Shown here: in pieces, positions 1 to 226 of the stretch
Position numbering within the stretch: the first letter of the stretch is position 1
How the letters are laid out: each line of letters begins with the position of its first letter
NCBI GenBank assembly: GCA_041600755.1
Contig: JBFIJL010000001.1
Location: 1 to 54,797, forward strand
Length of the DNA: 54,797 nt
From: Candidatus Saccharimonadales bacterium
GTDB lineage: Bacteria; Patescibacteriota; Saccharimonadia; Saccharimonadales; JAXHNE01
Reading direction: 5' to 3'
The notes under the pieces: generated by a model
What the model was told of the DNA's origin: nothing
Seen by the model: only the letters and a program-made list of their open reading frames with translations
The model's database searches: none
Position numbers and translations under genes: made by a program

Positions 1-226
1 CACTGAAATTGTGGACTCTTTATCTGGTGGGTGATGAGGGACTCGACCTGCATTCTGCAGGCCCGAAACTTCAGCTTTGAAAACAAGTTTTCAAGTGAAG
101 ATTTCCTTGCAAATTGCCACAGGCAATTCTCACCCCAACCCCTGGCGTCGGGTGTTCGAGTCCCGCCCAAACAAAAAGTCCACTGAAATTGTGGACTCTT
201 TATCTGGTGGGTGATGAGGGACTCGA
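1..226 (-). repeat. Direct repeat (1-46 = 181-226, period 180 bp; may extend beyond window start) of tRNA-Val 3' end plus terminator, flanking a palindrome-rich element (47-155)
   Basis: Exact 46-bp match cactgaaattgtggactctttatctggtgggtgatgagggactcga. The duplicate tRNA fragment starts in the T-loop (TCGAGTCCC...ACCA on minus strand). Confidence 0.95.
173..201 (-). terminator. Intrinsic terminator after tRNA-Val
   Basis: Minus strand AAAGAGTCCAC-AATTTCA-GTGGACTTTTT hairpin with U-tract directly after CCA. Confidence 0.8.

Follow-up and report, generated by a model that had tools for sequence, protein, structure and literature searches.

The window, that is, the whole stretch of 54,797 nucleotides analysed here, carries three tRNA genes, and a common layout recurs at all three. 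Behind the tRNA come a terminator, a leader of about 16 nt, an antisense T-arm tract and a short turn, followed by a sense T-stem piece, a three-hairpin core of 85–89 nt and a copy of the tRNA from the middle of its T-loop to CCA. The inverted repeats on which the sequence-only reading was built are all present, at 38–46/156–164, 389–396/495–502 and 2922–2928/3027–3033. Direct repeats bracket the inserts at 1–46/181–226 (D2, 100%), 360–396/536–572 (D3, 100%) and 2855–2926/3027–3098 (D1, 94%).

At the first locus, all parts of which lie on the minus strand, an intact tRNA-Val(TAC) with an encoded CCA (205–281; ARAGORN; Rfam tRNA, 68.7 bits) is followed by its intrinsic terminator t1 (170–204), a near-palindrome GATAAAGAGTCCAC-loop-GTGGACTTTTTGTT recognised in the sequence and by a terminator scan match at 177–197. 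This terminator resembles that of the same locus in the congener G003. A shortened leader (165–169), whose first bases TGG are the reverse complement of CCA, leads to the antisense arm (144–164). This is the tract reported earlier, but it is 21 nt long, not 9: window positions 144–164 are complementary (90%) to 218–238, which comprise the variable loop, the T-stem 5′ strand and the T-loop of tRNA-Val (inverted pair I7), and the complementarity also takes in 3 nt of the T-stem 3′ strand. In the predicted fold the arm pairs with 38–46. The next segment (131–143) holds a turn (141–143) and a sense arm GGTTGGGGT (132–140), a copy of the variable loop, the T-stem 5′ strand and T54 that forms an inner hairpin with the antisense arm. 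Base 131 (G) doubles as the first base of the family A core (47–131), which is 85 nt long, is supported by own-genome matches, fold and strand bias, and contains three hairpins, H1 (GAGAAUUGCC-UGU-GGCAAUUUGC), a long H2, and H3 (CCUGC-AGAAU-GCAGG). The 3′ part of tRNA-Val recurs from T55 to CCA (TCGAGTCCCTCATCACCCACCA) at 25–46, within repeat D2, and a second copy of part of the terminator (1–24) is cut by the contig start. Window bases 1–46 are the start of the contig; window positions 1–133 overlap, with a single mismatch, the terminal part of contig C3, where the remainder of the second terminator copy and the native flank are found.

The intact tRNA-Leu(CAG) gene (551–636; ARAGORN; Rfam) and its unit are likewise on the minus strand. 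Here a 15-nt trailer is joined through a 4-nt loop to an inverted copy of itself (517–550; inverted pair I9, 515–529/538–552), a hairpin that is missing at the distal, native copy of the trailer. The leader (504–516) and the antisense arm GGGACTTGAACC (492–503) together span 492–516, and the fold predicts a 9-bp closure with 388–396. A short turn with a GG stub (486–491) and an 89-nt core of family B (397–485) make up the segment 397–491, and repeat D3 (360–396) contains the copy of the tRNA 3′ part (375–396) and the 15-nt trailer (360–374). On the plus strand, the intact tRNA-Leu(GAG) gene (2790–2876; ARAGORN; Rfam) is followed by terminator t1 and leader (2877–2921), by the antisense arm GACTTGAACC with its turn and GG stub (2922–2937), and by a family B core of 89 nt (2938–3026). 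The arm is identical to that of the Leu(CAG) unit, and the two cores share 97% identity. The copy of the tRNA-Leu(GAG) 3′ part (3027–3048), a terminator and about 14 extra nt then fill 3027–3098 (D1, 72 nt).

The family of the source genome has only 4 genomes, and relatives were therefore sampled at the level of the order. The anatomy, here termed class 1, is shared by the window units and by 128 units from relatives. Read on the tRNA-sense strand, a class-1 module sits behind the tRNA's own terminator and consists of TGG plus the discriminator complement, about 12 non-complementary nucleotides, the antisense tract (the complement of tRNA positions ~63–46), a turn of 3–8 nt, a sense-strand repeat of the tRNA from the variable loop through the T-stem 5′ strand to T54, the 85–89-nt core and, finally, the remaining tRNA from T55/C56 to CCA. 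Each insert had been said to begin with an antisense copy of the T-loop. The antisense copy is real, but it is more than a terminus: the tract is the middle of an antisense segment of about 36 nt whose opening bases (TGG, then the discriminator complement) read as NCCA on the other strand. TGG stands right after the terminator palindrome in 69% of 52 class-1 units, and the next base tracks the discriminator. Opposite the acceptor strand, the patch of about 12 nt shows an identity to the complement of 0.27, the random level, while the loop and the T-stem 5′ part are kept; this is seen even where the direct repeats are 100% identical. GNRA tetraloops at the turn, which would be an RNA signature, were sought in 10 short-arm units; with 1 strict GNRA among them, the idea was dropped.

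The 3′ tRNA copy stops at CCA (+0–7) in 25 of the 31 intact units and is longer in 6. All three window units are exceptions to this boundary, as they also duplicate trailer or terminator; this looks like a copy made at the DNA or primary-transcript level, not one of mature tRNA. A rule that the direct repeat always takes in the terminator, true of the window units, was rejected, as it applies to only 6/31 intact units overall. Duplications vary from 19 to 121 nt. Mirror-image modules, termed class 2, carry a 5′ tRNA copy that begins at −5 to +1 in 23 of 25 cases, and D-loop versions of the module also exist.

The sequence-only reading had asked whether the tract co-varies with the adjacent T-arm across homologs, and had taken a tract constant at every tRNA as evidence against its proposal. 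We made this comparison and did not see a constant tract, since the tract tracks its target tRNA. Among 55 units of some 40 genomes, the match between antisense loop and neighbouring tRNA was 1.95 of 3 variable loop positions, against 1.43 ± 0.09 after shuffled assignment, and 0/5000 shuffles reached the observed match; the shuffles take no account of any shared ancestry among units. Cognate alignments scored 8.9 versus 6.7 (median percentile 0.92). The tracking is imperfect, with all three variable positions matched in only 40% of units and the loop complement of some units sitting 2–3 positions off their own tRNA. Within one core family of the source genome, the tract reads ACTTGAA at Leu (TTCAAGT), ACTCGAA at Met (TTCGAGT) and ATTTGAA at Arg (TTCAAAT). 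Pairing with the unit's own T-loop half, that is, the copy beyond the core, reached 0.77 versus 0.714 ± 0.014 (0/2000 shuffles). Mismatches at loop positions 57, 59 and 60 comprise 24 G·U versus 4 A·C, which argues that selection acts on the tRNA-sense strand.

The family A core has five own-genome matches besides the Val unit, with its length constant at 85, and own-genome searches gave no longer relatives of the core. Near-identical cores sit at different tRNAs, for example at three Ser tRNAs of genome G133 (96–100%) and at the two Leu tRNAs of the window, and the leaders differ between them. In genome G059, the units at Lys, Gln and Glu have cores that are 85–86% alike but wholly different arms, in each case specific for the adjoining tRNA. 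One core serves more than 15 tRNA species, and the arms differ from species to species. The arms of family A are target-derived.

The unit had also been proposed to close itself into one large hairpin. This was borne out for the Val unit, in which GGGACUC and GAGUCCC pair around the core on the tRNA-sense strand (MFE −58.8 kcal/mol, z = −3.2), and for the Leu(CAG) unit with its 9-bp closure, but not for the Leu(GAG) unit, whose MFE fold lacks the closure; the two Leu units of family B are no stabler than shuffled sequence (z = −0.2 and +0.16). When the core was removed in silico, the tract paired with both flanks in most of 44 units. For 56 of 71 cores the tRNA-sense strand gives the better fold (p = 2 × 10⁻⁸), and the H1 pair 3–21 is GC in 44, AU in 14, GU in 13 and AC in 0. 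Hairpins H1 and H3 sit exactly at the core ends. Of the units with an assigned tRNA (83 of 128), most lie on the strand of that tRNA, and few units have an opposite-strand tRNA nearby.

We interpret the tract as the splint arm of a small, non-autonomous, protein-less, structured mobile module that targets tRNA loops, and put the probability of this reading at roughly 0.4. In single-stranded RNA or DNA of the sense strand, the tract would pair with each half of the interrupted T-arm copy; the core would then jut from a multi-way junction, and the module ends, TGGN and NCCA, would meet. A core colonising a new tRNA would take its tRNA-derived arms from that target, and the pairing of the tract would later be maintained by selection on the sense strand. 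We infer that the pairing serves mobility, as site definition or as a substrate structure for insertion or copying. Mobility itself is supported by a Leu(GAG) site that is empty or otherwise occupied in congeners, by near-identical cores at different tRNAs and by tandem arrays. Against the reading speak the lack of a candidate among the enzyme families searched, the position of class-1 units behind terminators with no predicted promoter, the weak folds of the family B units, the imperfect tracking, the exceptions to the CCA boundary and the patch of about 12 nt, for which the reading offers no account. If the tract indeed positions the core by base pairing, it would represent a new targeting mode, in which a very small element devoid of proteins uses a guide taken from its target, a natural case of programmable nucleic-acid targeting of tRNA loops. 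It would likewise be a new way for tRNA genes to gain partial copies, terminators and flanking islands.

Co-variation could, however, exist merely because the tract was copied from the tRNA. The tract would then be a passive by-product with no role, the fossil of fold-back DNA synthesis (hairpin-primed or by template switch) at the palindromic terminator, core insertion having been rescued by a partial duplication that preserved an intact single-copy essential tRNA gene. We hold this to be rather unlikely, although several features speak for it: in 22 of 36 units the terminator centre is a mirror axis, to within ±2 nt, between the antisense T-loop and that of the tRNA; directly behind the palindrome stand TGG and the discriminator complement, and the antisense segment of L290, the one related unit found in a second metagenome scan, opens with 9 nt, TGGTGGGTG; the 15-nt Leu(CAG) trailer has its inverted copy at the junction only; leaders vary among near-identical cores; and no dedicated enzyme was found. 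Yet neutral decay predicts G·U and A·C mismatches in equal numbers, not 24 and 4. Nor does the random acceptor complement agree with it, given that the loop and the T-stem 5′ part are kept, also in units with 100% identical repeats; class 2 modules show the splint geometry again, with no terminator palindrome adjoining; and the constant 85-nt core and its exact position are unexplained by fold-back alone. A full-length inverted copy of the tRNA 3′ third, which fits the geometry, the TGG and the discriminator, was given up in view of the random acceptor complement and survives only as a rival.

Strand-specific folding, hairpins exactly at both core ends, a fixed orientation and the absence of a short fixed target duplication would also suit relatives of single-strand DNA transposons (IS200/IS605 PATE, REPIN-like or IS110-type), with H1 and H3 as transposase sites and the tract as target guide. 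Target recognition by base pairing is established for IS608 and for the IS110 bridge RNA, and IS200/IS605 with PATE, REPIN-RAYT and IS110 share with our modules the strand-specific terminal hairpins, the base-paired choice of target, the lack of a short target duplication and the existence of non-autonomous copies. As in a PATE, subterminal one-strand hairpins are found (H1 and H3; 56/71; G·U but no A·C), but the Y1 (HUH) TnpA is not: PF01797 (Y1_Tnp) had 0 matches in the source genome, despite its units with 100% repeats, and matched in 11/24 element-rich versus 8/24 pattern-free genomes. Guides of IS200/IS605 are 4 nt long and internal, unlike the 18–21-nt, target-copied guide of the modules, and these families are not known to make long partial tRNA copies ending at +1 or CCA. 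With Y1_Tnp as the transposase family searched, such a relationship is highly improbable in our view. Likewise, we found none of the marks of a MITE or classical IS, namely element-borne terminal inverted repeats, a fixed short duplication and an autonomous IS; the inverted ends of a module are copies of the target tRNA, different at each tRNA, and not element-borne.

The tract may have a guide-like or attC-like single-strand role, as raised from the sequence. Integron attC and the attP(+) of CTX phage also present their site in an imperfect hairpin of one strand, with a structure conserved beyond sequence and G·T-tolerant pairing on a single strand. They differ from the modules, whose arms are copies of the target tRNA instead of element-borne boxes and whose core is a side branch and not the tip, and the source genome has no IntI.

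The module layout is found behind 18–19 of the 40 tRNA genes of the genome, or about half, and 79 of the 201 genomes sampled from the order (~40%) contain the core hairpin, against 0 for a reversed-pattern control. For a genome of 0.8 Mb this is a large footprint, and in Saccharibacteria genomes the modules make up a major component that is unannotated. They use tmRNA as well as tRNA, occur in tandem arrays and truncated copies (the Met locus array has a decayed tRNA-end copy outermost), and are separated from some tRNAs by multi-kb islands, that at tRNA-Asn being about 9–10 kb. The use of tmRNA, the tandem arrays and the islands, together with an intact tRNA that has a displaced or duplicated 3′ end behind it, spanning mid T-loop to CCA, are shared with tRNA/tmRNA integrative elements, CIMEs and tycheposon satellites, and the modules can be mistaken for integration scars while supplying portable homology around islands.

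The T-loop is reportedly a known integration sublocation of integrase families, and one could thus see the modules as CIME-like mini integrative elements. Each unit would be an attL–attR interval and the tract part of attP, a tyrosine recombinase acting in trans would integrate at the T-loop, and the element's own 3′ end would restore the tRNA. An attL/attR-type repeat from the crossover to the tRNA 3′ end is indeed present (T55/C56 to CCA), but a cognate integrase is not. PF00589 (Phage_integrase) matched one protein of the source genome (C4:33924–34451), with no second tyrosine recombinase; it is probably Xer-type, and the same single-copy type occurs in 46 of 48 genomes, whatever the unit load. 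Nor is the distal fragment an original 3′ end with its native downstream sequence or terminator, as many distal tRNA-end copies continue into non-terminator sequence. At the Leu(GAG) site, which is empty in the congener G002 and holds other core families in G003 and G001, G003 has as its proximal terminator t1 a match to the native terminator found at the empty G002 site; the module therefore lies behind an intact gene and its terminator, not inside the T-loop.

Further differences from integrative elements are a payload of just 85–110 nt, the antisense target copy with its sense stub, mirror-image versions that duplicate the 5′ part from +1, D-loop versions, and the service of one core at more than 15 tRNA species with separate arms for each. 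The core-start pattern of family A (H1 plus CAAGG) had 0 exact matches in 2.9 million viral contigs, and the 24 matches of the H1 pattern alone in viral contigs were all unrelated high-GC phage sequences. We give a CIME-like origin very little credence. A 15-mer exact scan of genome contigs returned almost only chance matches in unrelated phyla, the 4 CPR matches that we inspected being no units, and an exact-pattern scan of metagenomes for an empty Val site gave 0 matches.

Returning to the splint-arm reading, a core-bearing RNA of tRNA length is a possible intermediate, because most partial copies end where the mature tRNA does; it might become fixed as DNA beside its gene. In mobile introns (group I with IGS P1/P10; group II with EBS/IBS), a segment of the element similarly base-pairs on either side of the insertion point, and reverse splicing resembles the modules in its fixed sense orientation, precise insertion in an exposed loop of a stable RNA and copy boundaries of RNA length. 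Unlike these introns, the modules have a core of 85 nt with no Rfam intron match, a guide outside the 'exon' stub and an interrupted copy that is not a functional gene, and they encode no reverse transcriptase. As regards retroelements (group II intron, retron, non-LTR, SINE-like), PF00078 (RVT_1) had 0 matches in the source genome and occurred in 5/24 unit-rich versus 7/24 pattern-free genomes; across the 48 genomes, none of RVT_1, Phage_integrase and Y1_Tnp follows the element load.

A bolder version would make the core a self-inserting RNA, protein-free or assisted by host enzymes, whose antisense arm is a re-writable guide into the T-loop or D-loop of mature tRNA, the chimera being copied into DNA beside the gene. 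Partial copies ending at +1 and CCA would follow from such a chimeric tRNA-length RNA, but we consider this version distinctly unlikely. If true, bacteria would possess a new class of mobile RNA whose targets are programmable and defined by base pairing. The mature-end boundaries in any case raise the question of RNA-level tRNA events fixed in DNA without a canonical reverse transcriptase.

Sense-strand folding and specificity for the cognate tRNA might instead reflect a functional small RNA linked to the tRNA, be it a 3′-processing or repair scaffold, a spare 3′ half, a toxin decoy or an antisense regulator, with the tract supplying specificity. In keeping with this idea, the tRNA-end copy is identical to the tRNA through CCA while the flanks diverge, and the acceptor 3′ strand would stay free for trans pairing because it faces the non-complementary patch. 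Promoter prediction, however, gave none for class-1 units, which lie behind intrinsic terminators, and any activity of these units at the RNA level would need terminator read-through. Moreover, about half of the tRNAs lack a unit; in congeners, the corresponding tRNA is empty or bears a unit of another family; the older distal ends are decayed at Gln, Lys, Glu and Asp, and 13 of 44 copies in relatives are decayed before CCA; and arrays and truncated copies behave like selfish repeats. The processing or repair scaffold put forward earlier thus fares poorly, and a tRNA-linked function of any of these kinds appears very doubtful.

An Rfam 15 search of window positions 1–3200 (E up to 10) returned the three tRNAs and weak chance matches on tRNAs only, with no self-splicing intron or other curated RNA family, and the literature searched contained no description of such modules. 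They are apparently an undescribed kind of tRNA-targeted insertion module. Small insertions in T- and D-loops and complementary leaders that pair pieces of a tRNA are features of the disrupted tRNA genes of archaea and algae (non-canonical BHB introns in T- and D-arms, split and permuted genes), but the modules reside in a bacterium, with no splicing endonuclease context, and always keep an intact tRNA beside the interrupted partial copy. The modules also break assemblies, and the window itself begins inside one.

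The three tRNA genes of the window, called by both ARAGORN and Rfam, are tRNA-Val(TAC) (205-281, complement), tRNA-Leu(CAG) (551-636, complement) and tRNA-Leu(GAG) (2790-2876, forward strand), and all three share one layout. On the tRNA-sense strand, a trailer or terminator stands behind the gene; next comes an insert of about 105-140 nt, then a repeat of the tRNA from mid T-loop to CCA, and last a repeat of the trailer. Direct repeats lie at 1-46/181-226 (Val, 100%), 360-396/536-572 (Leu(CAG), 100%) and 2855-2926/3027-3098 (Leu(GAG), 94%). The sequence-only reading had held that each insert begins with an antisense copy of its cognate T-loop and forms inverted repeats with it; sequence comparison found these repeats at all three inserts. 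At Val, the tract at 144-164 gives a 21-nt, 90% inverted match to 218-238 of the intact gene, spanning the variable loop, the 5' strand of the T-stem and the T-loop.

The window starts within the Val module, whose native flank is supplied by the end of another contig of the genome, C3. Window positions 1-133 equal C3:117306-117438 (133 nt) bar one mismatch, ATC versus ATT in the terminator loop. The assembly thus broke in the repeat, and C3 is probably adjacent in the genome to C1, the contig that begins with the window. Between the Leu(CAG) module and tRNA-Val lies a good match to a sigma-70-like promoter (309-337, complement; TTGACA, 17-nt spacer, TACTAT), so tRNA-Val would have its own promoter, though the native Leu trailer is without a clear terminator.

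The original observation is confirmed and extended. The anatomy was drawn from 128 units. In class 1, the type present in the window, a leader of about 16 nt after the terminator is followed by the antisense tract (complementary to tRNA positions ~63 to 46), a turn of 3-8 nt, a sense-orientation repeat of the tRNA from the variable loop through the T-stem 5' strand to T54, a three-hairpin core, and T55/C56 to CCA. Core length is strikingly constant: 85 nt for sequence family A, 89 nt for family B as found in the window. Where the core belongs to family B or C, the sense stub amounts to GG only, and specificity is limited to the loop complement. Class 2, upstream of the intact tRNA, is the mirror image: tRNA +1 to 54 comes first, then the core, 8 nt from T-loop and stem, a turn, and finally 13 nt of antisense tract. 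D-loops of 5' tRNA copies also hold the core found in T-loops. The assigned tRNA is on the unit's own strand in 83 of the 128 units, with a close opposite-strand tRNA in only a few. The best reading of the tract is as a splint arm, belonging to a small structured module that sits in the loops of partial tRNA copies next to the intact gene.

Co-variation of the tract with the adjacent tRNA was upheld. Tract and neighbour match at 1.95 of the 3 variable T-loop positions (57, 59 and 60), versus 1.43 +/- 0.09 for shuffled tRNA assignments; the observed value was reached in 0 of 5000 shuffles, which ignore shared ancestry. Tracking is imperfect, as all three positions match in only 40% of units. 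In local alignments of the pre-core region to antisense tRNA, cognate tRNAs scored 8.9 and non-cognate ones 6.7 (median percentile 0.92). In one core family of this genome, the tract reads ACTTGAA, ACTCGAA or ATTTGAA according to whether the neighbouring T-loop is that of Leu, Met or Arg. Family A arms, which take in 5-8 nt of the variable loop, are wholly different where the cores are 85-86% alike; such arms must therefore be acquired from the target.

When the core was deleted in silico, the tract paired with the sense stub and the T-loop half across the insertion point in most of 44 units. Its paired fraction with the unit's own right flank is 0.77, versus 0.714 +/- 0.014 for shuffled partners (0 of 2000 reach 0.77). 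The tract might be a passive by-product, a reading we consider unlikely. Neutral decay would yield G·U and A·C equally, whereas the non-Watson-Crick cases at loop positions 57, 59 and 60 comprise 24 G·U and 4 A·C, which argues that pairing is kept on the tRNA-sense strand. In predicted folds, that strand gives the more stable structure for 56 of 71 cores (mean difference 2.2 kcal/mol; p = 2e-8), and the third pair of the first core hairpin, H1, is GC in 44, AU in 14, GU in 13 and AC in none. The suggestion that the element closes itself into one large hairpin is supported for the Val unit, whose predicted fold contains a closure helix (z = -3.2). The Leu units fold no better than shuffles, although their sense strand is predicted to be 4-6 kcal/mol more stable than the antisense. 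Judged from sequence, the splint arm is target-derived and kept complementary on the sense strand. It may be an insertion guide, a mere holder of substrate structure, or a selected remnant of fold-back synthesis; we put a role in mobility at roughly 0.4.

The antisense sequence extends beyond the tract, which is one part of a larger segment. In 22 of 36 units the antisense T-loop and the tRNA T-loop are mirror-symmetric, to within +/-2 nt, about the centre of the terminator. TGG directly follows the terminator palindrome in 69% of 52 units, and the base after it varies with the discriminator: TGGA beside Lys, TGGC beside Gln and Ser, and TGGT at the other tRNAs. Thus the module ends, TGGN and NCCA, could pair in the fold. 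One metagenome unit at tRNA-Val begins TGGTGGGTG, the complement of CACCCACCA. The loop (0.78) and the 5' part of the T-stem (0.57) are kept, and the acceptor-strand complement is at random identity (0.27); in the modelled fold the stretch opposite the acceptor 3' strand is not complementary to it.

Comparison with congeners indicates that the units arose by insertion and are not fixed genes. G002 has only tRNA, terminator and flank at the Leu(GAG) locus; in G003 the locus holds a unit of a different family, and in G001 two units that contain nested small hairpins. Since the first terminator of G003 matches that of the empty site, the module lies behind a gene and terminator left intact. Different tRNAs with a common T-arm can carry near-identical cores: three Ser tRNAs of genome G133 do, and so, with the arm unchanged, do Leu(GAG) and Leu(CAG) of the window's genome. 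Locus L256 of G001 appears to hold nested insertions: upstream of tRNA-Val, a 5' pseudo-copy of that tRNA is interrupted twice, by one element in the D-loop and by a family A core in the T-loop; downstream of tRNA-Leu(GAG), Leu 3'-end copies carry an extra 18-nt hairpin between T-stem and acceptor strand.

The tRNA-end copy is intact in 31 units. In 25 of these the repeat stops 0-7 nt past CCA, and what comes next is unrelated to the first terminator; in the other 6, including all three window units, it continues through the trailer or terminator. Class 2 upstream copies begin at -5 to +1 in 23 of 25. Most partial copies therefore end at mature tRNA termini. These boundaries, to which the window units are exceptions, hint at a tRNA-length RNA intermediate.

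The modules show some but never all defining features of every known family tested. Insertion by an integrase, or in the manner of a single-stranded DNA transposon, seems in either case improbable. The only PF00589 protein of the genome is of a single-copy type present in 46 of 48 genomes; Y1_Tnp and RVT_1 have no match in the genome, and none of the three follows unit load across 24 unit-rich and 24 pattern-free genomes. Equally doubtful is a functional small RNA: promoter prediction found none for the units, which terminators precede. Rfam 15 gave no match. A full-text literature search found no description of such units. The family A core-start pattern had no exact match in IMG/VR, and H1-pattern matches there, considered as viral copies, were rejected as all unrelated sequences.

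The genome (807 kb, six contigs) has 40 tRNA genes, 18-19 of which are followed by a second copy of their last 16 or more nt, mostly 120-170 nt downstream. Its inserts comprise families A (at Val, Gln, Lys), B (Leu, Met, Arg), C (Arg(CCT), Asn, Leu(TAA), Met) and D (Ser(GGA), Leu(CAA)), plus one further type, with two-unit arrays at Met, Arg(GCG) and Asn. A hairpin common to families A-C, GARAAYNGCCNGNGGCNRTTTG, was found in 79 of 201 genomes of the order by a pattern search allowing one mismatch; the reversed pattern gave 0 matches.

Related structures occur outside the window. At tRNA-Arg(CCT) (C4:32400-32830), a direct repeat of 121 nt reaches 58 nt into the unit, so that a truncated second unit stands in tandem with the first; 1.1 kb away, at C4:33924-34451, is the genome's single tyrosine-recombinase gene. 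A family C-like unit at about 56.9 kb of C1, 2 kb past the window end, terminates in GTTCGTGCCCGCCAGCTCCACCA with no tRNA nearby; ARAGORN called no tmRNA in the genome. An island of about 9-10 kb (C2:97408-107800), whose ORFs include one for an 846-aa protein and no obvious recombinase-sized one, is flanked on one side by tRNA-Asn with two units and on the other by a distal repeat that combines a remnant of tRNA-Asn with the same terminator, the same family C unit in another copy, and the tRNA end. A tandem pair of 31-nt units follows tRNA-Thr(TGT) at C2:23041-23102; in each, 12-13 nt of filler are joined to a copy of the last 18 tRNA nt. Behind each of three tRNA-Ser genes (C1:265513-265602, 265926-266018 and 267649-267742) comes a palindrome of 16 nt (TGTACCAGCTGGTACA), perfect or nearly so, and then a second copy of the last 7-8 tRNA nt, CTCCGCCA or close variants; this is apparently an insertion of broadly similar type but much smaller size.
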